A stretch of 64,000 bases of DNA, taken from contig CAWEYL010000006.1 of the NCBI GenBank assembly GCA_963813335.1, positions 1 through 64,000 on the forward strand. Reading direction: 5' to 3'. The DNA comes from an uncultured Chloroflexia bacterium. Its GTDB lineage: Bacteria; Chloroflexota; Limnocylindria; Limnocylindrales; CSP1-4. Of this stretch, positions 3,729 through 37,195 are shown piece by piece. The position numbers and the translations under genes were made by a program. The stretch's first letter is position 1. Every line of letters starts with the position of its first letter. The notes beneath the pieces are model-generated. The model made no database searches. It was not told the DNA's origin and was given only the letters and a program-made list of their open reading frames with translations.

Positions 3729-4703
3729 ATGGTCACCTCGCCGCCCATCCGCGATGAGCGGACGGGCCTCCTCCTTGCGGCCGGGGCGGCCATCCTGTAC
3801 GGCGCGGCCTACCCGGCTACCGCCATCGCGCTCCACTCGTTCACACCGCTGGCGATCGCCGGGCTCGCCTGCACGATCGCGTTGCCCGTGGTCGTGGCCG
3901 GCGCCGCCTTCGGCCTGATCCCGCGCCCGTCCAAAGCCGCCCTGAACGCCCCGAGCCTCCTCCGCCTGCTGGTCCTCGCCGGGCTCGGCGGGCTCGGCTT
4001 CATCGCGGCGGTCAACCTCGCGGTCTCGCTCAGCGGCTCGACCGTCACAGGCTTCATCTCGCCGCTCTACGCCGTGGCCGCCGCGCTCTTCGCCGTCCCG
4101 ATCCTCGGCGAGCGCGTCCGACCCGCGGCGGTCGTCGGGTTCGTGCTGGCGATCGTCGGCACGGCCCTGCTCGCCGGCTTCGACCCCGACGGCGCGAACC
4201 TGCTCGGCATCGCGATGGGCGGCGCCGCCGCGGTCATGTTCGGGCTGTACATCGTGCTGGCCCGGCGCTGGGGTGGGCGGTATGCCCTCGACGGGACGTT
4301 GGTCACCGTCGCGAACCTCATCGGCCGGGGTCCGATCCTTCTGGCCGTCGAATGGCTCCGGGCGCCGGGCACGCTGATCCCCGCGAACCCGGAACCAGCG
4401 GCGGTCGTCGCCCTGCTCACGATCGCATTCGGGGCGAGCTCGACGGCGAACCTCCTGCTGATGGCCAGCGTCCGACGCGTCCCGGCCGGGCGGACGTCGG
4501 CCGCGCTGCTGCTGACCCCGCTGTCCTCGGCGGTCATCGCGGCCGTGATCCTCGGCGAGCGGCTGTCGCCCATCGAGCTCGTCGGGGCGGGGCTGATCCT
4601 CGCCGGTATCGCCGGGGCGAGCGGGCTGCTCGACCGGGCGATCGGCGCCCGTCGCGCCGCGCCGGCCGAGCCGGAGGACGCAGTCGCGGGGAGCAGCGGG
4701 TGA
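3729..4703 (+). CDS. DMT/EamA family transporter
   Basis: About 10 TM helices in two EamA repeats (PILGERV, VILGERLS). Confidence 0.85.
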   Translation: MVTSPPIRDERTGLLLAAGAAILYGAAYPATAIALHSFTPLAIAGLACTIALPVVVAGAAFGLIPRPSKAALNAPSLLRLLVLAGLGGLGFIAAVNLAVSLSGSTVTGFISPLYAVAAALFAVPILGERVRPAAVVGFVLAIVGTALLAGFDPDGANLLGIAMGGAAAVMFGLYIVLARRWGGRYALDGTLVTVANLIGRGPILLAVEWLRAPGTLIPANPEPAAVVALLTIAFGASSTANLLLMASVRRVPAGRTSAALLLTPLSSAVIAAVILGERLSPIELVGAGLILAGIAGASGLLDRAIGARRAAPAEPEDAVAGSSG

Positions 4704-5419
4704 TCCGCCGGGCCTGGCTCGCCCTGACCGCCGCGCCGCCGTACGCCGCGACGCATGCGGACCGGGCCACCTTCGACCTCGTCGGCCTCCGGCTGCCGGT
4801 CCGGGCGACAGTCGCCATCGCGGTCGTCACGCTGGTCCTGTTGTTCGACTACTCGCATACGTTCATGTCAGCGGACGCCGTCGCCCAGGGGCGCACGCCG
4901 GACGGGGCCCGCGCGCTCGCGATCGAGCGGTTGCTGCTGTTCGGGCTCGTCCCGCTGGTGGTGGTCCTGGTGGGCTTCCGCGACCGCCCGTCGCGCTACG
5001 GCCTGACCATCGGCGACTGGCGCTGGGGCGCGACGCTGACCGCCATCGGCTGCCTCGCCATGACCCCGGTCGTGCTCTGGTTCGCCAGCCAGCCGGACGC
5101 GCAGGCCTACTACGCGGTGAGTGCCGGCACGCCGGCCGACGTCGTCATCACGAACGCGATCGAGCTGACCGCGGTCGAGTTCGCGTTCCGCGGCTTCCTG
5201 ATGCTGACGCTGGTCCGGACGATCGGCCCGCTGGGCGTCGTCGTGGCTGCGATGCCGTTCGTCTTCGGCCACCTCGGCAAGCCCGAGCTCGAGCTCTTCT
5301 CGACGCTCGGCGGCGGCCTGGTCTACGGGTGGCTGGCGTGGCGGACCCGATCGATCGTCTGGGGATCGATCGGGCACACCTGGATCCTGAGCCTGGTCAT
5401 CCTCGCGTCCACGCCGTGA
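4700..5419 (+). CDS. CPBP (Abi/CAAX) family intramembrane protease
   Basis: GTGA overlap start; motifs VEFAFRG, FGHLGKPELE, GWLAWRTRSIVWGSIGH. Confidence 0.78.
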   Translation: MIRRAWLALTAAPPYAATHADRATFDLVGLRLPVRATVAIAVVTLVLLFDYSHTFMSADAVAQGRTPDGARALAIERLLLFGLVPLVVVLVGFRDRPSRYGLTIGDWRWGATLTAIGCLAMTPVVLWFASQPDAQAYYAVSAGTPADVVITNAIELTAVEFAFRGFLMLTLVRTIGPLGVVVAAMPFVFGHLGKPELELFSTLGGGLVYGWLAWRTRSIVWGSIGHTWILSLVILASTP

Positions 5420-6311: not shown

Positions 6312-6958
6312 GCCGCCGCCTTCACCGCGGCCGGGGCGGCCACGAGCTTCCAGCCGGACTGCCAGCTGCCGCCGTTGGCGATGTTCAGGGTGATGTTGAG
6401 GAAGGCGAGGCCCTCGAGCTGGCGCGCCCGGGCGAGCGGTCCGACATCGACCGGGCTGAGCCCGGCGGAGGCGACCAGCTCGAGCACCGCCGCCTTCGAG
6501 GCGTCGTCGTCACCGGCCACGAACCCGTCCAGCTGGACGCCGCTCGTGATCGGGTCCGCCATGTTCGACCCGAAGAGCGTGTTGAACGCCTTGACGATGT
6601 GGGCGCGCGGGAGGAGCGCCGCGAGCTCCTCGGCGTTCGAGATGGTGCCGTCGATCTCGGGGCCGGCGGCGCCGAACGACATCCGGTTGGTGACGTCGAC
6701 CACGGTCTTGCCCGCGACGGCGTCGGCGATCTCCGCGGCCACGGCGGGCGCGCTCGCGAACGGGATGGCGAGGACGACGAGGTCACCGGCCGCGGCCGCG
6801 GCGGCGTTGGACGGGGCGATCGTGGCACCCGTGGCCGCGGCGACGGCGCCGGCGTCCTCGGGATCGCGCGAGGCGATCGTCACGGTGTGACCGGCCCGCA
6901 CGAAGGCGGTGGAAAGGGCCTTGCCGACATTGCCGGCGCCGATGATGCTGATGTCCAT
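6308..6958 (-). CDS. NADPH-dependent F420 reductase family oxidoreductase
   Basis: Rossmann motif IIGAGNVG, VVDVTN, IVKAFNT, DVGPLARARQLE. Confidence 0.85.
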   Translation of the reverse strand: MDISIIGAGNVGKALSTAFVRAGHTVTIASRDPEDAGAVAAATGATIAPSNAAAAAAGDLVVLAIPFASAPAVAAEIADAVAGKTVVDVTNRMSFGAAGPEIDGTISNAEELAALLPRAHIVKAFNTLFGSNMADPITSGVQLDGFVAGDDDASKAAVLELVASAGLSPVDVGPLARARQLEGLAFLNITLNIANGGSWQSGWKLVAAPAAVKAAA

Positions 6959-7047
6959 CCGGACGATCCTCCTGCGACCTGACGAGTTTGGCCTCGTCAA
7001 TACGTGTTTGCTATGGACAGACCCTACGCCCTGGAGTAGGCTGTTGT

Positions 7048-7060
7048 CAACATGATGTTG
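7048..7060. promoter_or_regulatory. Perfect inverted repeat, candidate operator of the XRE-cupin regulator
   Basis: CAACAT-G-ATGTTG in the divergent intergenic region between the F420 reductase and the regulator. Confidence 0.35.
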
Positions 7061-7071
7061 TGGAGAGCAAA

Positions 7072-7632
7072 GTGACGACGACGGAGTCCAGGCGCAAGCC
7101 CGCCGTGGGCGTGCAGATCAAGCGCTGGCGGACGGAGCGCGAGCTGACGCTCGCCAACGTCGCCGAACGCAGCGGCCTGAACGTGGGCTACCTGTCGCAG
7201 ATCGAGAACGACAAGGCCTCGCCCTCGCTCGGGTGCCTCATGGCGATCGCCGACGCGCTGGAGGTGCCGGCCGCCTGGTTCTTCGTCGACGACCTCCCGG
7301 CGCCGCTCGTGGTCCGGGCCGACGAGCGCCCGGTCAGCGAGTCCGAGTTGGGCCGGGTATCGCATGTCGACGGTCGGGCCTCGCGCGACATCTCGATCCT
7401 CGAGATCACCTCGACCAACGCCGGCGGACGCGTCGGACTGCACTCGCACGCCGGCGAGGAGCACCACCTCGTCCTGCGCGGGCACTTCCGGATGACCCAG
7501 GGCGAGCACGACATCGAGCTCGGGCCGGGCGACTACGTCCGCTGGGACGGCACGATCCCGCACGAGGGCGAGGTCGTGGGCGACGACCCGGACGCCGCCA
7601 TGCTGATCATCCGGATCCACCCGAGGGACTGA
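7072..7632 (+). CDS. XRE family HTH regulator with C-terminal cupin
   Basis: LTLANVAERSGLNVGYLSQIENDKASPS (HTH) and HSHAGEE...IPH (cupin). Start approximate (GTG after GGAG). Confidence 0.85.
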   Translation: MTTTESRRKPAVGVQIKRWRTERELTLANVAERSGLNVGYLSQIENDKASPSLGCLMAIADALEVPAAWFFVDDLPAPLVVRADERPVSESELGRVSHVDGRASRDISILEITSTNAGGRVGLHSHAGEEHHLVLRGHFRMTQGEHDIELGPGDYVRWDGTIPHEGEVVGDDPDAAMLIIRIHPRD

Positions 7633-18429: not shown

Positions 18430-18618
18430 TCAGGCCAGCGCGATCCGGATGCGCTTGTTGATGCGCCCCTTGGACTCGTAGCCGGTCACCCGGATCGCGC
18501 CCACCTCGCGGGTGTTGGCGACGTGGGTCCCGCCGTCGGCCTGGAGGTCCAGGCCGACGATCTCGATCGTGCGGATCTCCTCGATGCCTTCGGGGAGCAG
18601 GTTGACCTTGGTCCGGAT
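18430..18618 (-). pseudogene. alaX: Displaced native 3' end of the alanyl-tRNA editing gene (alaX)
   Basis: Translates IRTKVNLLPEGIEEIRTIEIVGLDLQADGGTHVANTREVGAIRVTGYESKGRINKRIRIALA* (62 aa), homologous to the C-terminus of ORF 28687-29436. Host-like GC3 codons and no start codon. Confidence 0.93.
18599..18618 (+). repeat. Left attachment site (direct repeat)
   Basis: AGGTTGACCTTGGTCCGGAT, 19/20 identical to 28865-28884; identical core GTCCGGAT at 18611-18618. Confidence 0.88.
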
Positions 18619-18750: not shown

Positions 18751-19746
18751 TCAGGGGAGCTTCGCGATCGCAGCCTCGACAGCATCTGCCTCTCCCGCCA
18801 CGTGCACCACGAGAGCGTCACGTGACCAGAAGGCGACGGTGAACTCGTGACCTGACGCCCACTTGACAGTGCGTCCCGCAATCTCCCGCTGCTGCCACTT
18901 CCCCCGCGACGGCAGGTAGATGGCTGTACCAAACTCCGCGTCGAGGCGCTCCGCAGTGACCCCCGGCACGCCGTAGAGGCTGACGGTGAGCACGCCTGGT
19001 CCAGTTCCCCCCATCGCCGTCACGACTACGGCGTCGCGCGGTCGCGTGTCCAGCCGCTTGAGCGCCCTGTTGACGAGCGATGACCCCCAATGCGTCGCGC
19101 TAACCGAGGACACATCCATTGGTGGCGACGTGAGATCAGTCGGGATGAGCGCCTCAAGGTCCGGCGCCTCGTGCGGCATCTGCTCAGGCGTGGGCGGCCG
19201 TCCGACGGTGGCGCCGAGCTCTGCGGCGATCTCCGCCGTGACGCGTTCGATCTCCTCGAGCGACATCTCACGTGGTGGTGCGAACGAGGCGTTCGCTTGC
19301 CACGGGGTCGGTTCGTCGCTCTCGGGCTCGGGCGGTGGCTTCGGGCGTCCATCCGCTACCCAGTCTGCGTACAAGCGGTCCAGCGCTGGAGCGATCCGCG
19401 CGTAGCTGGCGGGATCGTCACCGACCGAATAGTCGGGTTCGTCGGCGAACACTCTGCCGTACTCGTCCACGTACGCGGAGTACCGCGCATCGCTGAACGC
19501 GCGCCCCTCAGCGTTCATGTCGGCTGGGAGGAGTTTCGTATCGATGTCGTCGGCGAGGTCTGACCCCGTCATCTCGCCTTGCTTCACGGCGACAACGTGA
19601 GACGCCGGAAACACCTTCGGGTTGTGGAGGTCGTGTCGGATGATCCATGCCAGGTAGAACCCGATGTGAGTGAACGCGTTCTCCGGTGGCTGACCCGCCG
19701 CAATGGCGCTGTCGAAGTGCCAGTCGAGTCTGTCGTATGTAGCCAT
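18751..19746 (-). CDS. Cargo protein: DUF7832-like N-terminal domain fused to a host lipoprotein-like C-terminal domain
   Basis: N-term YDRLDWH...THIGFYLAW...MNAEGRAF; Pro-rich linker; C-term DLEALIP...EIAGRTV...IAKLP resembles the 63517-64000 protein. Confidence 0.7.
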   Translation of the reverse strand: MATYDRLDWHFDSAIAAGQPPENAFTHIGFYLAWIIRHDLHNPKVFPASHVVAVKQGEMTGSDLADDIDTKLLPADMNAEGRAFSDARYSAYVDEYGRVFADEPDYSVGDDPASYARIAPALDRLYADWVADGRPKPPPEPESDEPTPWQANASFAPPREMSLEEIERVTAEIAAELGATVGRPPTPEQMPHEAPDLEALIPTDLTSPPMDVSSVSATHWGSSLVNRALKRLDTRPRDAVVVTAMGGTGPGVLTVSLYGVPGVTAERLDAEFGTAIYLPSRGKWQQREIAGRTVKWASGHEFTVAFWSRDALVVHVAGEADAVEAAIAKLP

Positions 19747-19849
19747 GGACGGGCGACCCCCTCGCGTGCGTTCCCAAGCTGGGCCCTTTGATATGCGTCA
19801 CGGAGAGCGTAGACCCACAGGCGGACGCCGCGAGCAGTGGTGGAGCCAC

Positions 19850-21019
19850 TCAGCGACGGAGAGCGTCGGGTCGCTCGAACGGTGAGCGGTAGGCGAGGCC
19901 CGTCGACAACTCGTGGCTGCTGTTGTGCAGCTTCACGAGGCGTTCGAGCGGGTTCCGGTAGTAGTGAACACGCGTCGGCCTGATCTTCGCCGGGTTGCGC
20001 CGAGGCGCTCCCCACTTCAACCGCGCATCACCGGGCGGCGTGTGGACGGTGTCGATGCGATCGAAGTCCTCGGGAGCGCCCGACAGGAACCAGAAGTAGG
20101 ACGACGCCTCCTGCGCCTCGCGGACTTCCGACATGACCACATCCCAGTCCCTGAGGATGAGGCGAGGAGGCCGTCGCGCCATCCTGCCGTAGACCTCGAC
20201 CTCGGCGGCGGCCATCGCGATGACGTACAGGAGCACCAGCTCGCTCGCGTAGTGGTCGAACATACCCATTCGATCAGGGGTGTTGCCGCCGAAGATCGCC
20301 TCGTAGCCACGCTTCGACGGATGCGCGTATCCGCTCAGGAACCCGTAGTGCACGTCCACCTGAATGTGCTTCCCGATCAGCAGTCCGTTCACGCGCAGCG
20401 CCTTCATGACCGCCGAGCGCCGGAACAGGTGGTTCCATGCCAGCGTCTGCTCGTCCGCCAGCTGCAGCATTAGCTTCTTCTCCCAGAACGGCGCAGCGAG
20501 CCGTCCGGCGTGCCACTTCGGTCCCAGGAATGGGTCGAACCGATCGACCTCGAAGTAGTAGTTCGAGATCGTCTGACCGCGGCCCTTCTTCGACTTGTCG
20601 CTGTGGAGTCCTCGGCGGACGACGTTCAGGTGGTGTTCGCGATCCCAGAACCAGCTATGGATGTCGGACCCGTCCTTCGCCTTCGCCGCTCGAAGGTCCG
20701 CATCCCACCTCGCGGCCTCCTTCTCCTTGGCATTCGAGTAGACGACGATGTAGCGGTTCGCGAGCAGGATCAGGCGATCCATCAGGTGGTGTTCGAGCGC
20801 GGCGCGGATGACGACGAGCGCGCTCGGGTAGTACCGGGCCTCGCTCAGAAGCAGCGCCGCGCGAAGATGGTGGGCGAGTTGCCCGGTGCGCTTCGCGTGC
20901 TCCATGTGCTGCATGTGCGCCACGCCGCCTGAACTGCCACGGCTCCCGATCGTTTCGAGGAGCCTCAGCATCCGCTCCGCGTGGGCAGGCAGCGTGCCGT
21001 GATCGTCCGTTGCGGTCAT
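19850..21019 (-). CDS. Cargo protein, DUF5677/HEPN-like (putative defence)
   Basis: Long ORF with IRAALEH and YGFLSGYAHPS motifs. Start uncertain (ORF open to 21133). Confidence 0.6.
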   Translation of the reverse strand: MTATDDHGTLPAHAERMLRLLETIGSRGSSGGVAHMQHMEHAKRTGQLAHHLRAALLLSEARYYPSALVVIRAALEHHLMDRLILLANRYIVVYSNAKEKEAARWDADLRAAKAKDGSDIHSWFWDREHHLNVVRRGLHSDKSKKGRGQTISNYYFEVDRFDPFLGPKWHAGRLAAPFWEKKLMLQLADEQTLAWNHLFRRSAVMKALRVNGLLIGKHIQVDVHYGFLSGYAHPSKRGYEAIFGGNTPDRMGMFDHYASELVLLYVIAMAAAEVEVYGRMARRPPRLILRDWDVVMSEVREAQEASSYFWFLSGAPEDFDRIDTVHTPPGDARLKWGAPRRNPAKIRPTRVHYYRNPLERLVKLHNSSHELSTGLAYRSPFERPDALRR

Positions 21020-21280
21020 CGGCACCGATGGTAGGCCGCCATCGGTTGCCGAGTTTCCGAAGATCGGTGGGACGGCCCTGGGACGAGCGCGGTCGCTGAG
21101 GCGGCTGGCAAGGACGACGAGCGACGATCGCACGCGATCCGACCACAGACAGGGGCGCGTCAGAGCGACCGCCTAATCCGCGTTGTTTTGGACAGGACAT
21201 GAAGGGCGCGCAGGCAGACGACAGCCCACGCGCCCCATTGCCCGATCCGTGCGCGCCCGGCTGACGCGCGGTGGGCGTGT

Positions 21281-22165
21281 CTAGTCGGTTGCCGTGGGCA
21301 ACTCGATGCCGAGTTCCTGCGCGAGGACCGGTGCCTCGCGCTGCCGCTGGTAGTCGGCCATCTTCACGACGTTGGAGGCGCGGATCTGCTCAACCGGCGT
21401 TCCGATCTTGTGGGCGACGCGAGACGCAGCGATGTCTCGCCGCGACAGTTCGAGTTCGTCCTGCGCCATCACCTCGATCTCGACCGCCTGCCGTCGATGA
21501 GGCACCGTCTTGTCGAGGTGGTGAGCGATCTCGCGATCGAGGTTGCCGTCGTCAGCGCCGACCTTCCTCGCTGCCGCGAGGTACTTCTGCGCGGCGTCGA
21601 GGTTGCCTGCCTGGAGCAGGCGCCGTGCCTCAGGGAGGAGGATGTTCCGCGCCTGCGCCCGCGATGGGTACTGCTCGGCGAGCGCGTTCGCCTCCATCTG
21701 CTCGCGGAGGCGGCGCATCTCGACCGCCGGATCGCCGACAGGATCGGACGCGCGCAGACGCGCTGCCTCCGTCCGCTGCCCGTGGTGCCACAGGAGCATC
21801 TCGCGCGAGTGACTCGTTTCGAGCGCGGCCAACTCCTTGAGGATCGCTGCGCCCTCGCGCTGGCGGTACTCGATGGGGTACCGATCTGACTGCGACTCGC
21901 TGTACCTCGCAGCGATCGCCGCGTACTGCTCGCGGAACGTCTTGCGCAGCGTTCGTGCCTTGTCTCTGCTCACCTTGACCTCCTGTTCTTGCTTGACTGA
22001 CTGGGCGATGGGTCCTCGGCGTGCGCGCAGCACGCCAATCTCCTGCTGGATCGCCTCGCGACGTTCAGGGGACGCTGGCGGCGTGCCCCACGCCCCGTCG
22101 CGTTCGAGCGCGAGCAGCAGCAACTTGTGGTCGATCGCTTGCAGGCGATCACGCGGCGTGGGCAT
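21281..22165 (-). CDS. Hypothetical alpha-helical/coiled-coil protein (294 aa)
   Basis: TGATG overlap with the upstream nuclease gene; E/R/A/Q-rich helical sequence. Confidence 0.75.
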   Translation of the reverse strand: MPTPRDRLQAIDHKLLLLALERDGAWGTPPASPERREAIQQEIGVLRARRGPIAQSVKQEQEVKVSRDKARTLRKTFREQYAAIAARYSESQSDRYPIEYRQREGAAILKELAALETSHSREMLLWHHGQRTEAARLRASDPVGDPAVEMRRLREQMEANALAEQYPSRAQARNILLPEARRLLQAGNLDAAQKYLAAARKVGADDGNLDREIAHHLDKTVPHRRQAVEIEVMAQDELELSRRDIAASRVAHKIGTPVEQIRASNVVKMADYQRQREAPVLAQELGIELPTATD

Positions 22166-22812
22166 CAGTACGGGTCCGACGATGCATCGCGCGAGGTGAC
22201 GAGGACCCCTGACCGCGACAGGTAGCGCGACTGACCCGACCCGATCCGCCAGTAGGTCGCGAGCATGAGCGCGACGATCAGGTCATCGTGGTCGCGACCG
22301 TCGCGCAGCGCCTCGTACGTGTCCGCGCCGCTCTGCGAGAACTTGGCGCGGAACGAGGCGTGCTGCTTCGCGATTTCCTTCCGCAGCGGAGTGTCGCGGA
22401 CGGCGATCTGACCGCTGCTCAACTTCGCCTCGTACTTGCCGACGAGGTTCCGCTTCGCGAGGTGCCCGCCGTTGTCGAGGATGCCCGCGGTCAGGATGAT
22501 CGGCTGCGCCCACAGCCTCAGACGACCGTCCCGTTTGGCCTGGCGGAACATGTCCTCGTAGACGGCACCGACCCCTGTCGCGTCGAACAGGAGGCGCGCG
22601 TCTTCGAGGCCTTCCCTCCCCATGACCGCGAGGGTGTCCGTCACGACCGACGTGTGCGGCGTGCCCAGTGCCCACTGCTGGGCGTAGGCGACGTCCCACC
22701 GCCATCGGTCGTGGTCCTGTGGGGCGTCCCTCGCGAGCATGATCCGCTCGACGATCACGAGCGCCGCCGGGTCCTGACGCTGACCCGGATCGAGGGCAAC
22801 AACAAGGTTCAT
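22165..22812 (-). CDS. Terminase large subunit nuclease (RNase H-like) domain as a stand-alone gene
   Basis: VVALDPGQRQDPAALVIV, FDATGVG, HDDLIVALMLA (acidic triad); own RBS GAGGAGGT and ATGA overlap. Confidence 0.82.
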   Translation of the reverse strand: MNLVVALDPGQRQDPAALVIVERIMLARDAPQDHDRWRWDVAYAQQWALGTPHTSVVTDTLAVMGREGLEDARLLFDATGVGAVYEDMFRQAKRDGRLRLWAQPIILTAGILDNGGHLAKRNLVGKYEAKLSSGQIAVRDTPLRKEIAKQHASFRAKFSQSGADTYEALRDGRDHDDLIVALMLATYWRIGSGQSRYLSRSGVLVTSRDASSDPY

Positions 22813-23570
22813 CTGGCCACCTCCTCAAAGAGGCCCGGCATGCCCTCGCCTTGCGCGAGCATCCGAGCGATGTCGTCTGGGCGGAAGATCGCGTCCGACG
22901 TGGACACGAACGCGCACTCGTACTCCTGCTGGTAGACCCACGACCCCAGCGACCGACGCTCCTCCTCGAGGAAGTCCGCGGAGATGCGCGGCACAGCGGA
23001 CGCCGGAACCTCGTACCGCTCCCACCCAGGACCGCCGTTCGCCCACGCGTCCCACCACCAACCGCGCTGACCGAACGGCGTGCTCAGGGCGATCAGGCGC
23101 CCGCCCGTGACCGCGAGCATCGGACGCACGGCGGCGTACATGTCGTCATCGATCCGCGATGCCTCGTCGAGGATCAGGAGGTCTGCCGAGAACCCGCGCA
23201 CCGTGCTCTCGGACGCCGGCAGCGAGATCACGCGCGACCCGTTCTCCGCTGTGAGGGTCGTCTGGTTGTCGCCTGTCTTGACGAGCGCGAGTTCCTTCCA
23301 CAGGTGGCGGACCTTGCCTGCGACCTCGCTCGACTGGCGCAGGCCCGCGGACACGATCAGGACGACGGAGTCAGGGACGCTGCTCGCCTGATGGACAGCG
23401 GCGACCGCTGCCGTCGTGCTCTTGCCGCTCTGGCGGCAGCAGTTCCACAACTGGCGCGGATGCCGCGACCGGAGCGCGCCGCGCTGCCAGTCGTCCGGCG
23501 TCATGCCGATCGACGAGCACAACTCGACTGGATCGAGCGCGCGGAGCAGATCGCGCGCGAGGGAGGTCAT
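22809..23570 (-). CDS. Terminase large subunit ATPase domain (Terminase_6-like) as a stand-alone gene
   Basis: Q-motif PDDWQ, Walker A CCRQSGKST, Walker B LLILDEASR, motif III ALSTP, and QEYECAF. Confidence 0.9.
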   Translation of the reverse strand: MTSLARDLLRALDPVELCSSIGMTPDDWQRGALRSRHPRQLWNCCRQSGKSTTAAVAAVHQASSVPDSVVLIVSAGLRQSSEVAGKVRHLWKELALVKTGDNQTTLTAENGSRVISLPASESTVRGFSADLLILDEASRIDDDMYAAVRPMLAVTGGRLIALSTPFGQRGWWWDAWANGGPGWERYEVPASAVPRISADFLEEERRSLGSWVYQQEYECAFVSTSDAIFRPDDIARMLAQGEGMPGLFEEVAR

Positions 23571-24067
23571 GCCTCGATCCTCCGCAGCGCGTTCGTCACG
23601 TCCGCGAGCGCGTCAGGGTGCCGCTGCAACGCCGCGAGGATCGTCATGCGCGTCCGCACCCACTCGTCGGACGTGGACAGGTTGAGCACCTGCACCGTCG
23701 ACTGGTTCTCGGGGCGCAGCTCGCCGCTCAGGCGTGCCAGCAACTCGATCGAGGCGCGCAGTTCGCGCGAGGCGCCCAGCAGCATCGACTCACGCTTCTC
23801 GTCGTGCGTCCGGTTGACGAGCGCCTCCAACTTCGAGACGAGGCCTTCGACGCGGTCGCGCGCGGTCGTCTCGATCTGGACGGCGGTCCCCTGCTCCGCG
23901 CGAAGCGCCGTCAGCGCCATCGACATGTGCCGGTCGCGATGCCGACGCAGCGCGTCGCGATCCATCGAGAACTGACGCCCAACGGCGGACAGCGAGCGTC
24001 CGGACACGATCAGCGCCTCGATCGCTGCCTTGTCCTCTGATGTGCAGGTGCGGCAGTACCCAGCCAT
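23567..24067 (-). CDS. Putative terminase small subunit (CxxC/HxxxH-flanked HTH plus coiled coil)
   Basis: MAGYCRTC...SLSAVGRQFSMDRDALRRHRDRH, then a helical region; directly upstream of and coupled (ATGA) to the TerL ATPase. Confidence 0.7.
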   Translation of the reverse strand: MAGYCRTCTSEDKAAIEALIVSGRSLSAVGRQFSMDRDALRRHRDRHMSMALTALRAEQGTAVQIETTARDRVEGLVSKLEALVNRTHDEKRESMLLGASRELRASIELLARLSGELRPENQSTVQVLNLSTSDEWVRTRMTILAALQRHPDALADVTNALRRIEA

Positions 24068-24525
24068 CAGCGCTGCTCCTGCCGCGATGCCTGCGCGAGT
24101 GCGCGCTCTCGCTGGCCGACGGGCTCCGGGGCGCCGGTCGCCAGATGTAGAGGGTGGGGGGTGGCCACACGTCGCACGGTCGGAACGCGGTCGCGGTTGA
24201 CGTAATCCGAGGTGGAGCGACCTGCGATCGACCGCGACCGCGAACCTGGACCTGCCGACCGATGCCTGACGTAACGGTGGGCAACCTGCGCCTGGCATCG
24301 ATCGCGGTCGGACCCGCTAGGAACGGATGCCCGTCCAACGTCCACGGCGGACGTGCCGTGTCTCATGAGCACACTCCTCATCGCTTTCACCACTCGATTG
24401 CACGCGTCGATCGCTCGCACGCACTCAGCGCTACGCGCCTCTGAGTGCGAGCGAAATCGCCTTTCGCTTGCACCGTCGCGTTCACCGGTGCAAGCGACCG
24501 ACTGCAAGCGACGAACCGCCTTCAC
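24067..24525 (-). CDS. Hypothetical ORF (possibly spurious; overlaps the repeat cluster)
   Basis: Start and stop overlap both neighbours (GTGA, TGATG), but no recognisable motifs. Confidence 0.35.
   Translation of the reverse strand: MKAVRRLQSVACTGERDGASERRFRSHSEARSAECVRAIDACNRVVKAMRSVLMRHGTSAVDVGRASVPSGSDRDRCQAQVAHRYVRHRSAGPGSRSRSIAGRSTSDYVNRDRVPTVRRVATPHPLHLATGAPEPVGQRERALAQASRQEQR
24411..24512. repeat. Inverted/direct repeat cluster, candidate replication origin or packaging site
   Basis: IR TCGCTCGCAC/GTGCGAGCGA (24411-20/24445-54); IR TCGCTTGCACCG/CGGTGCAAGCGA (24464-75/24486-97); DR TGCAAGCGAC (24489-98, 24503-12). Confidence 0.55.
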
Positions 24526-26321
24526 GCCGCACCGCCATCGAGTCGGAACACGCGCTTGTGCGACTTCCCCTGCGCGTCTGACTCGATCGCTTGGAGGTCG
24601 TGCAGGTCGGCGCGGATGGTGTTCGGCGACGCCGCGATGCCTTCTCGCGCCAGCGCGCTCCGCACCTCCTCGACAGACAGCGCGGCATCCGTGAGCAGCG
24701 CAGTGATCGCCTCGCGTCGCTTCCGCTGGTCGCCGCGCAGCGCTTGCGCTCGACTGACGCGCATGGCGATCACGCCCTCGCCTGACCCGCGATCCGCGTA
24801 GCGCTGCGTGTCGCGGTCGTAGGACAGGAGGAAGTAGGTCGGTTCGACCACTCGCCCCTTGACGTTGACCACGCGGTCGTCCGCGTCGCCGTTGGGGTCA
24901 GGCGCGAACTCGGCAAGGATGTCCACGGACGACGTGAGCGCGGTCGATCCTCGCGCCCTCGCGTCGTCCTTGCGGAAGTGGTGGACGACGATCACGGCGG
25001 CGCCAGCACGCGCGACGGTCGAGCGGATCAGCGCGATCGATCCCGTGACTTCGGCGGCGTCGTTCTCGTTCTCGATCCCTGCCCATTGAGCGAAGGTGTC
25101 GATGACGACGACCTCCGCTCTGCCTGCCTTCACCTCTCGCGAGGCGAGCACGAGCGCGTCCGTGAACGTCAGCGACGCTGCGACCGCCTCGGCGTACGCA
25201 AGCGTCCGTGCGCGCACGTCGTAGCGGTCGAGTTTCAGCGTGATCGGAGGTCCCCACTCCTCGGTGAGGATCAGCACCGACGCCTTCCTGATCGCGCGCC
25301 CGAGGAACATGTCGCCGCGCGTCAGGTGCCCCAACAGGTCGGACAGGAAGGACGACTTGCCTGCCTTCTCAGGACCCGACAGCAGCGTGATCCCTGATCG
25401 GTACAGGAGCGGATGCCAGATCCAGTCGAGGTTGGTTGGCATGATCGCCCCCAACTCCGACCGCGTAAGGAAGACGTGCGCCTCGTCAGGCGACGGCAGA
25501 TCGCGTCCACCCGCGAGGTGCCAGGCACGCCAATCCTTGCCGCCGCCCGTCAGAGGGTCGTAGTCAGGCGGTCGGATCGTCGCGACGTCCAACCCTGCGG
25601 CAACGATGCGGGCAGATAGTTCGCTTGAACCGTCGCTGCCTTCGGCGTCCGCATCGAAGGCGACAACGATCTTGCCCACGCCTCGCCGCCGCAGAGCGTC
25701 GATCTGAGAATGCGTCAGCGCGGTTGCTGCGCCTTTGGTGATGGCGAACGCGTCGATGCCGCGCGAGCGCAGGACGATGCAGTCGGATTCGCCTTCGGTA
25801 AGCACGATCGACGAGGGGTACTCGTCGAGCAGCGGCCAGATCGGAGGCGCCTTCGCCCCCTTCGGTGCCCATCCGTGTTCGCCGGTCAGCGGATCGCGCG
25901 TGCGGACGACGCTCGTGCCGCTGAACGTGAAGGCAACCTTGCCCTCGCGCTCCTCGATCGGCAGCGTGCCGACGAACCCGCGATCCACGCCGCAGTAGTC
26001 GGCGTACCAATCGAGCGGCGCCTGTCGCGTCCGTCGAGGCAGCGCGGTCAGGGGCGACACCTCGCTGCTGGTGGCGATGGAGACGTGACCGTTGCGCCGA
26101 CTGCCATCGACCGCTGCGACCACGTCGGCGTATCCGCATCCTGCGAAGCAGCGGACGAGGGCATCGCGCCCCTTCCGCTCCGTGACGTGCAGCGACGGTC
26201 GCCCGTCGTCGTGCGATGGGCAGCGCGCCATGATCGACCCGTCGCCCTGGTCTTCGATCGCGTCGAGGTGCGCGCGCCAGTAGCGCAGGTCGCGGACGCC
26301 GCGCGTGTTGACGGTCACCAT
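24522..26321 (-). CDS. Primase-helicase (Zn-binding + TOPRIM + AAA_25/RecA-like + C-terminal wHTH)
   Basis: CPSHDDGRPSL...CFAGC; LTEGESD...FDADAEG; Walker A SGPEKAGKS; Walker B VVVIDT; HHFRK...RGSTAL. Confidence 0.88.
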   Translation of the reverse strand: MVTVNTRGVRDLRYWRAHLDAIEDQGDGSIMARCPSHDDGRPSLHVTERKGRDALVRCFAGCGYADVVAAVDGSRRNGHVSIATSSEVSPLTALPRRTRQAPLDWYADYCGVDRGFVGTLPIEEREGKVAFTFSGTSVVRTRDPLTGEHGWAPKGAKAPPIWPLLDEYPSSIVLTEGESDCIVLRSRGIDAFAITKGAATALTHSQIDALRRRGVGKIVVAFDADAEGSDGSSELSARIVAAGLDVATIRPPDYDPLTGGGKDWRAWHLAGGRDLPSPDEAHVFLTRSELGAIMPTNLDWIWHPLLYRSGITLLSGPEKAGKSSFLSDLLGHLTRGDMFLGRAIRKASVLILTEEWGPPITLKLDRYDVRARTLAYAEAVAASLTFTDALVLASREVKAGRAEVVVIDTFAQWAGIENENDAAEVTGSIALIRSTVARAGAAVIVVHHFRKDDARARGSTALTSSVDILAEFAPDPNGDADDRVVNVKGRVVEPTYFLLSYDRDTQRYADRGSGEGVIAMRVSRAQALRGDQRKRREAITALLTDAALSVEEVRSALAREGIAASPNTIRADLHDLQAIESDAQGKSHKRVFRLDGGAA

Positions 26322-26512
26322 CGTCCACCGCCTGCCGTTGACACGACCCCGCGTGCTTCGCCGACGATCGATGGGCGCGGTGGGTTCAAGTGACGTTGAC
26401 GCCGCGCATCCCTTCCCCACCTGAGGTGACGGCATGGACAGGATCGACCACGTGACCCGCGAGACAACGGACGTGTGCTTGGAACTCGTGCAACAAGCGC
26501 TCGCGGAGGCAT
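26315..26512 (-). CDS. Hypothetical small ORF
   Basis: Fills the gap between coupled genes (TAG-ATG junction); no motifs. Confidence 0.3.
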   Translation of the reverse strand: MPPRALVARVPSTRPLSRGSRGRSCPCRHLRWGRDARRQRHLNPPRPSIVGEARGVVSTAGGGRW

Positions 26513-26809
26513 CTACGCGTCCTCCTCGATCGCGAACGGCACGTACCCGCACAAGCACCCGTATCGCTCTTCCAGTCGGTGTGCGAGCAGCGTTCGGATC
26601 ACCGTTGCCGCCTTCGCACGAGGACTCATCTCCTCGTCCGTGAACTGGGCGTCAAGCGAGGCGTAGAAGAGGCGGATCGCCGCGCCGCCAGCAGGCGACC
26701 TGAACTCCTCCCATCGCGCCGCGCCGTGGGCGCAGGCGAGCGTGATCGACCGCAATCCACGGTTATCTGGGCGGACAAGCAACTCCGCCCAACGCTCCTC
26801 GTCGGTCAT
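26513..26809 (-). CDS. Hypothetical protein (98 aa)
   Basis: ATGA overlap with the upstream gene; Cys/His motifs CAHG and H...YGCLC. Confidence 0.6.
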   Translation of the reverse strand: MTDEERWAELLVRPDNRGLRSITLACAHGAARWEEFRSPAGGAAIRLFYASLDAQFTDEEMSPRAKAATVIRTLLAHRLEERYGCLCGYVPFAIEEDA

Positions 26810-27102
26810 CGCGGCACGACTCGCAGCGCACGCCGATCGCGCTCGCGCTTCTCGACCATGCGGAGGAAGTGCATCCGCTGGGCGCGACGCGCGGCGAGGG
26901 TGCGTGCCGCCTCGCCGAGGTCAGGTGAGATCGTCACGTCGCACCCGAGCGAGCAGACGTGCCGCGTGCCGAACGTCGCGAGGAACGCCTCACGTGCCTG
27001 CTCGGTCATCGAGGCAGGGTCAGCGGCGCGGTTGATCGCCTTCTGCAGACCGCCGAGGCGACCAGCGCGAGCGCGCTTCTCGTGGAGCGTCAGTCCGTCC
27101 AC
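26806..27102 (-). CDS. Hypothetical protein (98 aa), basic
   Basis: RARAGRLGG...DPASMTEQAREAFLATF...ARRAQRMHFLRM; resembles small proteins of high-GC integrative elements; coupled to neighbours. Confidence 0.65.
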   Translation of the reverse strand: MDGLTLHEKRARAGRLGGLQKAINRAADPASMTEQAREAFLATFGTRHVCSLGCDVTISPDLGEAARTLAARRAQRMHFLRMVEKRERDRRALRVVPR

Positions 27103-27326
27103 GACAACGCCGCCTTGATCTTCGCGAGGGAGGTCGGACCCGGACGGATGACGCCGATCTCGTAGGCGGCGATCGACGTCTGTGGGACCTTCGCGATCGT
27201 CGCGAGGTCCATCTGCGACATGCCGAGCGTGATGCGTCGCTCGGTCATCTCACGTGCGAATGGAGAACGCGCAGCGAGCACGTCCTGTGGGATCAGCGCA
27301 GGTCCACGGGACCCACCGCGAGGCAT
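27090..27326 (-). CDS. XRE/Cro-like HTH protein
   Basis: RRITLGMSQMDLATIAKVPQTSIAAYEIGVIRP. Confidence 0.8.
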   Translation of the reverse strand: MPRGGSRGPALIPQDVLAARSPFAREMTERRITLGMSQMDLATIAKVPQTSIAAYEIGVIRPGPTSLAKIKAALSWTD

Positions 27327-27611: not shown

Positions 27612-28568
27612 TCACACGAGGTCGCCAGGCGCACCTTGGGCGAAGTAGGCGGCACGCGCGCGCTCGTCCGCGGCGGAGGCACCGTAGCGCTGGAGCATCT
27701 CCGGCGATGACCACCCCATCAGGCGCATGAGCGCGTTCTCCTGCATGCCACCCTTGAGGTTGAGGTGCGCCGCCGTGTGGCGGAACTGGTGCGGATGCAC
27801 GTGCGCCAATCCGGCAGCGCGCGTCCGCTCCACCAACAGGTTGTTGAGCGCCGGAGGTTCCATCTGAGCGCCCATCTGCGACACCCACAGGAACGGCGAC
27901 GCGGCGTACTTGTGCGTTCGGCGGAGGCGGAGGTATCGCTGCAACGCCTGCGCCGACTTCGCACCGAACGGCACCACGCGTGCCTTCTTGCCCTTCGCGT
28001 TCTCGTGGCGGACTTGGACGAGGTGCTGATCGAGCAGCACATCGTCCATATGCAGGCCCATGAGTTCAGCGCGCCGCATCCCCGTGTCGAGCAGCAGGCG
28101 CAGGATCGCCGTGTCGCGACGATCGGCGAACGTCTTGCCTGAGCAGGCGTCGAGCAGCGCGCGCAGGTCCTCGATCGAGAGCACAGGCACGGGTTCCGTC
28201 GGTTTGGTCGGCGCCTGCATGCCGCGCATCGGCGTCTTCTCGACGATCTCCTCGTTGACCGCGAAGTTGAAGAACGCTCGAAGGCCCGCGTACCGCGTGT
28301 TTGCCGTGCCGGCGGAGTGCTTGCCCAACTGATCCGTCATGAACGCCTGGAGCATCGCGCGAGTGATCTCCGGCGTGCTGCGCGGGTACCCACGATCACC
28401 TAGGAAGCGATCCAGCGTCGCGAGCGTGAGGCGGTACGACTCGACCGTGCTGGGCGAACTGTTCCTCGCGCGCAGCGTGTCCGCGAACCACTGGAAGTCG
28501 GACATGAGCTGCGACGGCGCGGCGCTCGGAAGGGCGATCAGGTTGTTTGCAGCGGACGAGCGGGGCAT
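27612..28568 (-). CDS. int: Tyrosine recombinase/integrase
   Basis: DTGMRRAEL (R), AKGKK (K), HQFRH (HxxR), LMGWSS (W), LQRY (Y); N-terminal SAM-like domain; RBS AAGGAG. Confidence 0.95.
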   Translation of the reverse strand: MPRSSAANNLIALPSAAPSQLMSDFQWFADTLRARNSSPSTVESYRLTLATLDRFLGDRGYPRSTPEITRAMLQAFMTDQLGKHSAGTANTRYAGLRAFFNFAVNEEIVEKTPMRGMQAPTKPTEPVPVLSIEDLRALLDACSGKTFADRRDTAILRLLLDTGMRRAELMGLHMDDVLLDQHLVQVRHENAKGKKARVVPFGAKSAQALQRYLRLRRTHKYAASPFLWVSQMGAQMEPPALNNLLVERTRAAGLAHVHPHQFRHTAAHLNLKGGMQENALMRLMGWSSPEMLQRYGASAADERARAAYFAQGAPGDLV

Positions 28569-28686: not shown

Positions 28687-29436
28687 TTATTCGTCCACCA
28701 GTGCGATCCTGATCCGCTTGTTGATCCGCCCCTTCGACTCGTACCCCTGAACACGAATCTGACCAACTTCGCGCGTGTTCGAGACGTGCGTCCCACCGTC
28801 GGCCTGCAAGTCAAGCCCGACGATTTCTATCGTCCGAATCTGCTCGATGTCTTCAGGCGGCAGAAGGTTGACCTTTGTCCGGATCAGGTCCGGGATCGCG
28901 AACGCCTCGGCGCGCGGGAGGACGTTGACCTTGACGTCGCGCTGGGCGGCCAGCTCGCGGTTGACGGTCGCCTCGATCTCGTCGACGAGGTCGCCCGACA
29001 TCCGCTCGAACTCGAAGTCCATCCGCGCGGTCCCGGGCTCCATGTTGCCGCCCGTGACATGGGCGCCGTAGTCGCGCCACACGACCCCGCAGAGGGCGTG
29101 CAGCGCGGTATGGGTCCGCATGAGGGTGAGACGGCGCGCCCAGTCGAGGTCGACCTCGACGAGGTCGCCCACCGCGGGCGGGCCATCGTCGTCGGGCTCG
29201 AGCTCGTGGACGATCTCGCCATCGGCCTTGCGCGCGGAGCGGACCGTCCACGACCGCCCGTCCGCGGTCCGCAGGATGAGACCGCGGTCGGCCGGTTGCC
29301 CGCCGCCGCCCGGATAGAAGACCGTCCGGTCGAGGACGACCAGAACGGCGTCGCCCGCCTCGATCGCGACGACGCGCGCCGCGACGCGCTGCAGGTAGGC
29401 GTCCGAATAGGCGAGCTGCTCGCCGCTGGGTGTCAT
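28687..29436 (-). CDS. alaX: Alanyl-tRNA editing protein (AlaX-M type), chimeric: 3' end supplied by the element
   Basis: TVFYPGGGGQPAD, MRTHTALH, DLQADGGTH. The segment from the att core to the stop (28687-28884) is element-derived. Confidence 0.92.
   Translation of the reverse strand: MTPSGEQLAYSDAYLQRVAARVVAIEAGDAVLVVLDRTVFYPGGGGQPADRGLILRTADGRSWTVRSARKADGEIVHELEPDDDGPPAVGDLVEVDLDWARRLTLMRTHTALHALCGVVWRDYGAHVTGGNMEPGTARMDFEFERMSGDLVDEIEATVNRELAAQRDVKVNVLPRAEAFAIPDLIRTKVNLLPPEDIEQIRTIEIVGLDLQADGGTHVSNTREVGQIRVQGYESKGRINKRIRIALVDE
28865..28884 (+). repeat. Right attachment site (direct repeat)
   Basis: AGGTTGACCTTTGTCCGGAT; core GTCCGGAT at 28877-28884. Confidence 0.88.
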
Positions 29437-36407: not shown

Positions 36408-37124
36408 ATGGGCATCCGCCGCCGGACGGCGCACCATCCGCGAATGCAGCTGACGACGATGGGGATGGAGGATCGACGAAGAGGCGGATCGGTCGTCACC
36501 GGGACGATCGAGGGGGCGATCCTCGCCCTCGGAGGCCTGCTCGTCGCCTACGTCGCCATCCGCACCCCGTTCCTCGCGCTGCTGACGCATGCCCTGCGCC
36601 CCGGGGCGACCCCGCCGGATGGGACCCTCACCATCGTGGTGCTGATGGTCGTGCCGATCGCCTTCGTGGCCGTCGGGACCGACCGGCTGGCGCGGGTCGT
36701 GGCGGCCATCCGGGACCGCCATCGCCGGCGCGACTGGGTCGGGCTGCTGCCGGCCGGGATCGTGGCGTCGCGGACCGTGGACCTGGGTGACGGCCGTCCG
36801 GCCCCGACCCTCGTCGCCGGTCCCTACGGCCTCGCCGTCGTCCGCGAGGTCGACATCGCGACGGCCGAGGACGTGGAGCTCGCGACGCGCGACACGGACC
36901 GGATCCGCCGCTGGCTGACGCGCCACGAACAGGACTTCGTCGTCCGCCTCTACACCGCGGTCGCCGCGCCGGAGCATGACCTCGTGCGCACGCCGGCGTG
37001 CGCGCTCGTCACCCCGGAGCAGCTGCCGTCATGGCTGGCCATGCTGCCGAACCAGCGCAGCCTGACGTCGAGCCGACGCGACCGGCTCGCCCGGATGCTC
37101 GGGGCGGCCGACGCGGACTGGTAG
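36408..37124 (+). CDS. Hypothetical membrane protein (two TM, possible degenerate NERD-like domain)
   Basis: Two hydrophobic segments then LVAGPYGLAVVRE; start uncertain. Confidence 0.55.
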   Translation: MGIRRRTAHHPRMQLTTMGMEDRRRGGSVVTGTIEGAILALGGLLVAYVAIRTPFLALLTHALRPGATPPDGTLTIVVLMVVPIAFVAVGTDRLARVVAAIRDRHRRRDWVGLLPAGIVASRTVDLGDGRPAPTLVAGPYGLAVVREVDIATAEDVELATRDTDRIRRWLTRHEQDFVVRLYTAVAAPEHDLVRTPACALVTPEQLPSWLAMLPNQRSLTSSRRDRLARMLGAADADW

Positions 37125-37195
37125 GGGAGCCAGGACTCGAACCTGGAACCAGCGGGATATAAGCCCGCCGCTCTGACCGATTGAGCTACTCCCCC
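37119..37195 (-). tRNA. tRNA-Ile(UAU)
   Basis: GGGGGAG-TA-GCTC-AATCGGTCA-GAGC-G-GCGGG-CTTATAT-CCCGC-TGGTT-CCAGG-TTCGAGT-CCTGG-CTCCCCT-A-CCA; anticodon TAT at 37161-37159. Confidence 0.9.

Follow-up and report, generated by a model that had tools for sequence, protein, structure and literature searches.

Separate ATPase and nuclease genes for a predicted large terminase in a 10.26-kb integrative element of an uncultured Chloroflexota bacterium

The DNA analysed here, called the window below, is a stretch of 64,000 nucleotides from contig CAWEYL010000006.1 (assembly GCA_963813335.1) of an uncultured Chloroflexia bacterium of the Limnocylindrales. It harbors a 10.26-kb element bounded by direct repeats, in which the ATPase and the nuclease of a predicted phage-type large terminase subunit (TerL) are encoded by two adjacent genes, next to a gene for a candidate small subunit (TerS-like). 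Canonical TerL is a single polypeptide, whereas here a stop codon ends the ATPase reading frame and the nuclease has a separate start, and this split is conserved in related loci. The features are listed in Table 1.

The two terminase genes

Both genes lie on the minus strand, a detail missing from the first-pass annotation. The plus strand reads tcat where they meet, which is ATGA on the coding strand, so that the ATPase stop codon TGA (22809-22811) and the nuclease ATG overlap. A Shine-Dalgarno-like word, GAGGAGGTGG, is found within the last ATPase codons, with a spacing of 7 nt between its GGAGG and the nuclease ATG. The two separate open reading frames (ORFs), the ATGA overlap and the strong ribosome-binding site described in the first-pass annotation are therefore all present in the sequence at these coordinates. 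The stop of the TerS-like ORF and the ATPase start also overlap by 4 nt, and the start of a 294-aa ORF overlaps the nuclease stop by 1 nt. Given these overlaps of 4, 4 and 1 nt, the TerS-like, ATPase, nuclease and 294-aa genes form one translationally coupled block.

Table 1. Features of the terminase-carrying element and of three related elements (positions refer to the window unless a locus is named)
Feature	Position	Strand	Remarks
Far-side flanking repeat copy	18435-18618		displaced gene 3' end; other border of the element
Two unknown genes (331 aa and 427 aa)	18751-21133	minus	probably cargo
Gene for 294-aa helical protein	21281-22165	minus	same coupled operon; no family match (Pfam, PHROG, NCBIfam, PADLOC)
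TerL nuclease gene	22165-22812	minus	215 aa; RNase H/RuvC-like fold
ATGA overlap	22809-22812	minus	ATPase stop TGA and nuclease start ATG, 4 nt in common
Shine-Dalgarno-like word	22817-22826	minus	before the nuclease ATG
TerL ATPase gene	22809-23570	minus	253 aa; ATPase core, lid and former interdomain linker
TerS-like gene	23567-24067 (longest ORF to 24298)	minus	~166 aa; CxxC, helix-turn-helix (HTH), helical region
Primase-helicase gene (Toprim and AAA_25)	24522-26558	minus	Pfam AAA_25 (E 1.6e-24), Toprim_2 (E 3.5e-09); PHROG primase/helicase
Small HTH regulator gene	27090-27326	minus	78 aa; weak NCBIfam repressor matches, below cut-offs
Tyrosine integrase gene	27612-28568	minus	Pfam Phage_integrase (E 5e-30)
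Integrase-side flanking repeat copy	28698-28884		3' end of alaX-like gene 28687-29436
L008 element	L008: 1385-8472		6,997 bp, between exact tRNA-Arg 3'-end repeats
L006 element	L006: 1738-11226		9,447 bp; exact tRNA-Met 3'-end repeats
L071 (IMG/VR contig)	L071: 1-11694		11,694 bp; 123-bp terminal direct repeat

The ATPase protein matched Pfam Terminase_6N with 46.1 bits (cut-off 22; E 6.2e-12) over profile positions 6-214 of 215, and PHROG 7579, 'terminase large subunit', with an E of 1.7e-59. The profile of PHROG 7579 has only 239 positions, which makes it a family of short proteins. When a profile of 38 ATPase relatives was compared with the PDB, it found the ATPase-domain chains of P74-26 TerL (4zni/4znj, E 1.6e-18), aligning to residues 14-259 of the 274-residue chain, and it also matched T4 gp17. 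The Walker A, Walker B and STP motifs claimed for this protein in the first-pass annotation are indeed there, and NCCRQSGKS (N43-K50), D135-E136 and S163-T164-P165 are invariant in the 38 aligned genes. With Riverbug TerL the window ATPase shares 52% identity. By homology, then, the 253-aa gene encodes a TerL ATPase domain of the Terminase_6N type, for which ATP hydrolysis and DNA translocation are predicted.

The nuclease protein matched PHROG 27743 (function unknown, 233 positions) with an E of 4.6e-20. A tblastn search of 50,697 phage records gave nothing at E ≤ 1e-5, and homology emerges with profiles only. Likewise, searches of genomes with this protein returned the window's own record and one weak match only, peptide patterns being too divergent. 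A profile of 38 nuclease relatives matched nuclease chains of G20c/P74-26 TerL in the PDB (5m1q/5m1f/5tge, E 4e-16 to 1e-15). An AlphaFold2 model built on the alignment of these relatives reached a predicted local distance difference test (pLDDT) score of 88.3 and a predicted template modelling (pTM) score of 0.86. The PDB matches listed by Foldseek for this model are all terminase structures, almost all of them nuclease domains or full-length large terminases: G20c (2.3e-6), human cytomegalovirus UL89, SPP1 G2P, Sf6 gp2, P74-26, T4 gp17, HK97, D6E, P22 and E217. In the 38 aligned genes D8, D14, D77, G80, G82, K120 and H175-D176-D177 are invariant, the acidic residues aligning with the DfGknqD, DtwGvG and HDD stretches of the G20c chain, and the nuclease motifs quoted in the first-pass annotation are conserved across the same relatives. 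Profile and model comparisons thus identify the 215-aa protein as a genuine TerL nuclease domain with predicted activity. Because the ATPase and nuclease profiles align to separate domain chains, the break coincides with the cut that structural biologists made between the two soluble domains of P74-26/G20c TerL, which is the usual interdomain linker, as had been proposed.

Distribution and history of the split

One genome per prokaryotic species was scanned for relatives of the ATPase, which gave 64 loci, one of them the window's own record. In 47 of the 63 non-self loci a short ATPase ORF (~250 aa) was accompanied by a separate ORF matching the nuclease profile. Six had a fused-length ORF (L054, L057, L058, L060, L061 and L066), and the remaining loci were broken or at contig ends. 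Even the window nuclease protein alone, used as query, matched 38 of 50 downstream ORFs. Loci from IMG/VR behaved similarly, with 12 split and 5 of fused length among 17, so that overall 59 of 80 non-self related loci, in independent assemblies, carry two genes. According to the record titles, the split loci belong to Chloroflexota, Actinomycetota, Bacillota, Pseudomonadota, Acidobacteriota, Nitrospirota, Gemmatimonadota and Methanoperedens archaea. One carrier of the pair, Ferruginivarius sediminum (L030), is an isolate. A Limnocylindrales metagenome-assembled genome (MAG) keeps the whole module of primase, TerS-like, ATPase, nuclease and 294-aa genes, its two terminase genes being 70-76% identical to those of the window.

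The geometry of the junction is variable. A 4-nt overlap was found in 11 of 38 pairs, and junctions range from -83 to +11 nt, the 83-nt extreme being probably a mis-called start. Of the 38 nucleases, 23 are in frame +2 relative to the ATPase and 12 in frame +1, and the other 3 continue its frame behind a stop. In 25 of the 38, a 5-base Shine-Dalgarno-like word precedes the nuclease start by at most 20 nt. Distances of 160 nt to 1.9 kb separate the two genes in L041, L045, L034, L035, L083 and L085/L064, and some of these gaps contain an ORF; unrelated ORFs occupy the space between ATPase and nuclease in L041 (6754-7416), L045 (6725-8611) and L034/L035 (~6760-7080).

The junction was also checked in contigs of relatives rather than in reads of the source sample, since no public run, with 0.24 of the sampled words at most, is the source sample. 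In Logan contigs from two other studies, positions 22809-22812 are crossed with 0 gaps (X2 record 11, covering 22435-22964, and X3 record 19, covering 22744-22872). For the ATPase ORF 10 of 10 variant sites, and for the nuclease ORF 18 of 24, fell on third codon positions, a tally of the listed sites, outside which there are 190 further differences; this bias in both frames indicates that both ORFs are under purifying selection. The first-pass annotation had held the split to be genuine and not an indel error. The bridging contigs, in which no frame-fusing indel occurs, bear this out for the relatives, and so does the comparison of homologues, the closest of which are mostly split and not single-chain in both the genome and the IMG/VR loci.

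Stand-alone forms are abundant. In a collection of 5.8 billion proteins, 5630 ATPase relatives were found at E ≤ 1e-10, and of the best 120 almost every one has 241-308 aa, lengths up to 443 being allowed. Their source names are 'hypothetical protein', 'terminase family protein' and 'terminase large subunit domain-containing protein'. The nuclease profile matched 14,560 representatives of 50%-identity clusters at E ≤ 0.001, 3901 of them at E ≤ 1e-30. The best 150 are all 194-296 aa long and thus stand alone too. Separate nuclease genes have also been duplicated: two full-length copies follow the ATPase in tandem in L029 (1036-2240) and L044 (6732-7960); the first copy, without the first acidic motif and without the H of HDD, is possibly an inactive paralogue.

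To follow the history of the split, 79 ATPase domains, of which 59 are from split, 12 from fused and 8 from undetermined forms, were placed in a quick maximum-likelihood tree; because the search was brief and some branches are long, placements in it are provisional. Fused forms appear in several places within a tree dominated by split ones. Parsimony counts 5 split/fused changes, at least 2 of which are required by strongly supported branches. The C-terminal halves of Riverbug and MMP17 TerL matched the split-nuclease profile (E 4e-25 and 2e-20), whereas fused Planctomycetota-related and several viral forms did not (E > 0.05) and have another set of C-terminal motifs. A single nuclease type across all fused relatives was therefore rejected, and the mismatched C-termini imply that this ATPase domain has been combined with more than one nuclease module. 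Five loci (L054, L060, L078, L080 and L081) encode a fused TerL with an ATPase of this lineage and a nuclease of another type, which suggests swaps of the nuclease module. Taken together, the sequence comparisons indicate that the split is ancient and widespread and characterises a large TerL lineage, to which G20c/P74-26 TerL is related.

The integrative element and its relatives

The direct repeats that delimit the element (D1/D7) are ~185 nt long, 79-88% identical and spaced by 10,263-10,266 bp, and in an alignment the differences between copies are mostly spaced in threes. The alaX-like gene at the integrase side matches Pfam tRNA_SAD/tRNA-synt_2c, and the pattern of repeats at its 3' end looks as if the element brings a replacement gene end. 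The only tRNA gene in the window is a tRNA-Ile (anticodon TAT, 37119-37195). Integrase, flanking attachment (att) repeats and replication genes of its own are thus found together in 10.26 kb, a length within the ~5-20 kb of phage satellites. The genome that contains the window (2.54 Mb, 81% complete) has one copy of the ATPase/nuclease pair.

Capsid, portal and tail families were not detected in the element with Pfam, PHROGs, NCBIfam or PADLOC, although its 294-, 331- and 427-aa ORFs could hide divergent structural proteins. The major capsid, portal and head-tail adaptor genes that mark a capsid-forming phage-inducible chromosomal island (cf-PICI) were likewise not detected. The 427-aa ORF gave no match in Pfam, NCBIfam or PADLOC and no structural one in PHROGs, and the 331-aa ORF none in NCBIfam or PADLOC, the only libraries scanned for it. 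In the protein Atlas 18% of the clusters near the 427-aa protein carry DUF5677, a lead only. Two ORFs of 98 aa are encoded as well. For the 294-aa protein 34 relatives were found in a large database at E ≤ 0.001, most of them close; the gene follows the nuclease in a conserved manner only in L004, and a metagenome scan with this protein gave a single 6.9-kb contig. Many contigs encoding its close relatives are 10.0-11.3 kb long, near the 10.26 kb of the element, and these may be excised or separately assembled copies.

Homologues of the TerS-like gene are located directly upstream of the ATPase gene in 40 loci. Pfam Terminase_2 was matched by 1 of 31 family members (E 3.5e-13), and a weak match to a small terminase was found in the PDB (E 0.12). 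Position and matches make the TerS-like gene a probable small-terminase gene. Riverbug gp33 (E 3e-58), annotated as hypothetical, is a homologue. In the Riverbug locus (L002) it is gp33, at 2517-2999, that corresponds to the TerS-like gene, not the annotated TerS at 4355-4759; the label TerS may have been given to the wrong gene there.

Some relatives are compact and well delimited. The L008 element contains genes for an integrase, an HTH protein, a Rep_O-like protein, the TerS-like protein, the ATPase, the nuclease and one unknown protein, while L006 carries a DNA methylase-Mrr fusion as cargo; in both, the TerS-like gene and split TerL are the only virion-related genes. Its terminal repeat makes L071 a complete genome of 11.6 kb, with integrase, primase, RusA, TerS-like and split TerL genes and no structural match among the ten ORFs scanned. 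Integrases, primases and methyltransferases were the PHROG families seen most often among 139 larger ORFs taken from 26 split loci.

Other carriers of the split are phage-like. Just downstream of the nuclease, 3 of 114 ORFs (47 loci) matched a portal family, in L069, L070 and L072. In L070 the portal gene (E 1.2e-96) directly follows the nuclease and a major head protein (E 1.1e-69) is encoded a few genes further downstream; L069 and L072 carry relatives of both. These three loci are in the same strongly supported clade of the ATPase tree as the window gene. The split was therefore rejected as a marker specific to satellites, and it is a lineage trait that complete phage-like genomes use too, not a satellite invention. 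A different arrangement is seen in L027, L037, L039 and L046, a Bacillota clade in which a homologue of the L070 head protein is encoded just upstream of the TerS-like gene (~4570-5460 in L039), and these elements are possibly capsid-forming.

The gene content of the window element and of its small relatives (7.0, 9.4 and 11.6 kb), all without detected capsid genes, suggests that they are terminase-carrying satellites with a putative dependence on helpers. Tentatively, and with the odds rather against it, they may represent an undescribed cross-domain class of 7-12 kb integrative satellites, without capsid but with a three-gene terminase holoenzyme (TerS-like, ATPase and nuclease) that would fill helper procapsids with the DNA of the satellite itself, a strategy between those of phage-inducible chromosomal islands (PICIs) on the one hand and cf-PICIs on the other, in which a two-piece TerL may ease swapping or duplication of the nuclease. 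Our literature search, which did not cover the supplementary tables of satellite papers, found no description of this split lineage, nor of satellites with TerS and TerL and without capsid genes.

Proposed reassembly, alternatives and known systems

We propose that the pair is a two-subunit TerL which arose by ancient gene fission at the interdomain linker and whose subunits reassemble as an ordinary TerL, the split being a lineage trait inherited by the element; we give this a probability of roughly 85%. The first gene would supply the ATPase motor domain with a conserved C-terminal tail, the former linker, and the second, translationally coupled, the RuvC/RNase H-like nuclease domain. The two proteins would most likely rejoin non-covalently, the ATPase tail docking on the nuclease. 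Together with the TerS-like protein, the reassembled pair would then act as an ordinary TerL, cutting concatemers and pumping DNA into a procapsid, and an element without capsid genes would use the capsids of a helper phage. The split would have been inherited by the window element and not evolved for it.

A structure prediction for the ATPase-nuclease complex is consistent with docking. It scored 0.82 (best of 3 controls: 0.18); 58 of 80 solved complexes attained that mark, as did 2 of 110 mismatched pairs. Contact agreement between runs was at least 74%, and partner pLDDT at least 74. In the predicted interface, ATPase residues 224-248, the conserved tail with its PLF-like end, lie on nuclease residues 124-156. 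In P74-26 TerL, the nearest relative with a solved structure, the ATPase domain is reported as the main DNA-binding site and as required for cleavage, while the isolated nuclease domain neither binds nor cleaves DNA (PMC5389665). Since the P74-26 nuclease needs its ATPase domain, the stand-alone nuclease described here would need its ATPase partner.

Among the alternatives, the one that survives best is that the subunits are sub-functionalised, the nuclease or the ATPase acting alone or with helper subunits, for example against packaging of the helper. Most sampled split loci are small integrase/primase elements without detected structural genes, and the tandem nucleases of L029 and L044, with one copy diverged, indicate that a separate gene can diverge. 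However, the phage-like contigs with their own portal and major head genes are also split, and there the pair must serve ordinary packaging. Moreover, nearly all loci keep the two genes side by side and coupled, the conserved ATPase tail is part of the predicted interface, and the isolated nuclease domain of P74-26 is inactive, as cited above. Separate functions thus seem improbable. The first-pass annotation had suggested variable stoichiometry, mixing with helper terminase or a lone nuclease as adaptations of a satellite, and these ideas are unsupported, given the split in phage-like contigs and the inactivity of that isolated domain.

A programmed ribosomal frameshift or bypass could instead restore a fused TerL. 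Streptomyces phage Hau3, with its interrupted terminase, is a case for which such recoding was proposed (PMC10732093), and the ORFs of the window do overlap. It is an unlikely explanation, with only a few chances in a hundred by our estimate, because the 38 pairs share no common geometry, most have a Shine-Dalgarno-like word of their own before the nuclease start, and at several loci the genes are separated by as much as 1.9 kb. A decaying remnant, in which the ORFs are pieces of the dead TerL gene of a degraded prophage, would agree with the capsid, portal and tail genes not detected in the element and with the helper prophage not found in the genome. Yet catalytic and nucleotide-binding residues are invariant, environmental variation is concentrated at third codon positions in both frames, the flanking repeats and the integrase are intact, the five-gene module is kept in the Limnocylindrales MAG, and compact relatives have clean tRNA-derived repeats, one contig having a terminal repeat; a dead gene is therefore ruled out, for all the small residual chance that we would still allow it. 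Most firmly ruled out is a one-base assembly or sequencing error that broke a single-chain TerL gene in this long-read MAG: the closest cultured phages do have a single-chain TerL, and indel errors elsewhere in the assembly were mentioned in the first-pass annotation, but the two-gene layout recurs in independent assemblies, contigs from two other studies cross the junction gap-free, the second ORF has its own start codon and Shine-Dalgarno word, and junctions vary in length, in all three relative frames and by inserted genes at some loci.

Several observations weigh against the proposal of an ancient fission followed by reassembly. The window nuclease protein matched no Pfam family at E ≤ 0.01, Terminase_6C included, and only 24 of the 38 nuclease relatives matched Terminase_6C (best E 2.7e-07); for the window protein this miss is offset by the match of the nuclease profile to nuclease chains in the PDB. 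The high score of the complex may reflect memory of solved fused relatives, being a measure of likeness and not of binding. Reassembly and both enzymatic activities are predictions from sequence and models. The history is not one clean fission, given the 5 changes on the quick tree. The closest cultured phages, Thermus Riverbug and Meiothermus MMP17/MMP7, have a single-chain TerL of ~416 aa, unlike the pair described here. Finally, a search of the 81%-complete genome with PF05065, PF04860 and PF03354 detected no HK97-type capsid, portal or second terminase, and so no helper prophage, although the absence of a helper is unproven.

The pair can be compared with several known systems. Both of its domains are homologous to those of the TerL of Thermus phages G20c/P74-26 and Riverbug and of Meiothermus phage MMP17, and Riverbug also shares the upstream gene, gp33, with this lineage; the difference from these single-chain proteins is a stop codon and a new start in the linker. 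A two-gene TerL with separate ATPase and nuclease is reported for cluster AY Arthrobacter phages such as BillyTP (PP978841; PMC11920828). In the GenBank record, BillyTP genes 2 and 3, annotated as TerL ATPase and nuclease, are consecutive and slightly overlapping, between TerS and portal. The architecture is shared with the window pair but the sequence lineage is different: BillyTP gp2 and gp3 (359 and 198 aa) did not match the profiles of this family in a two-sequence search (E 0.12 and 0.016), so that the fission in cluster AY is independent. Cluster AY phages are complete and plaque-forming, whereas the window carries a 10-kb element, and by their example plaque-forming phages can work with a two-piece TerL. 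The uniqueness of a two-gene TerL implied in the first-pass annotation was accordingly overstated, with cluster AY in print and stand-alone relatives in the thousands. In cyanophage Mic1 the TerL gene is interrupted by inteins, and a single protein is restored by splicing (PMC7156551). Such intron- or intein-interrupted genes also look broken, whereas here nothing is inserted and two proteins are predicted.

In layout (integrase, regulator, primase/replication, packaging and accessory genes) and in size (~7-12 kb with att repeats), the element resembles PICIs and cf-PICIs, the median size of a PICI being 9.5 kb (PMC10085698). PICIs are reported to carry TerS only, and cf-PICIs TerL together with capsid, portal and adaptor genes (PMC10085698). 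The element differs from both, as far as its genes alone tell, in having a TerS-like gene and a complete two-piece TerL with no capsid or portal gene detected. In print, a two-gene TerL was already on record for cluster AY phages; the split described here is a further, independent and very large instance, and the capsid-less integrative elements with a whole terminase are a more novel lead than the split itself.

A natural and widely conserved two-piece TerL would mean that the covalent tether between motor and nuclease is dispensable. It would also offer a ready system for the models, derived from work on P74-26, in which the nuclease, on a flexible tether, is not switched on until packaging ends. 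As for annotation, names could now be given to thousands of 'hypothetical' proteins of ~220 aa encoded beside short 'terminase' genes, and such pairs should not be taken for frameshifted pseudogenes. If the small elements are indeed satellites, they would represent a new strategy of hijacking packaging, present in archaea and in phyla of soil and sediment, groups without any known characterised satellite.

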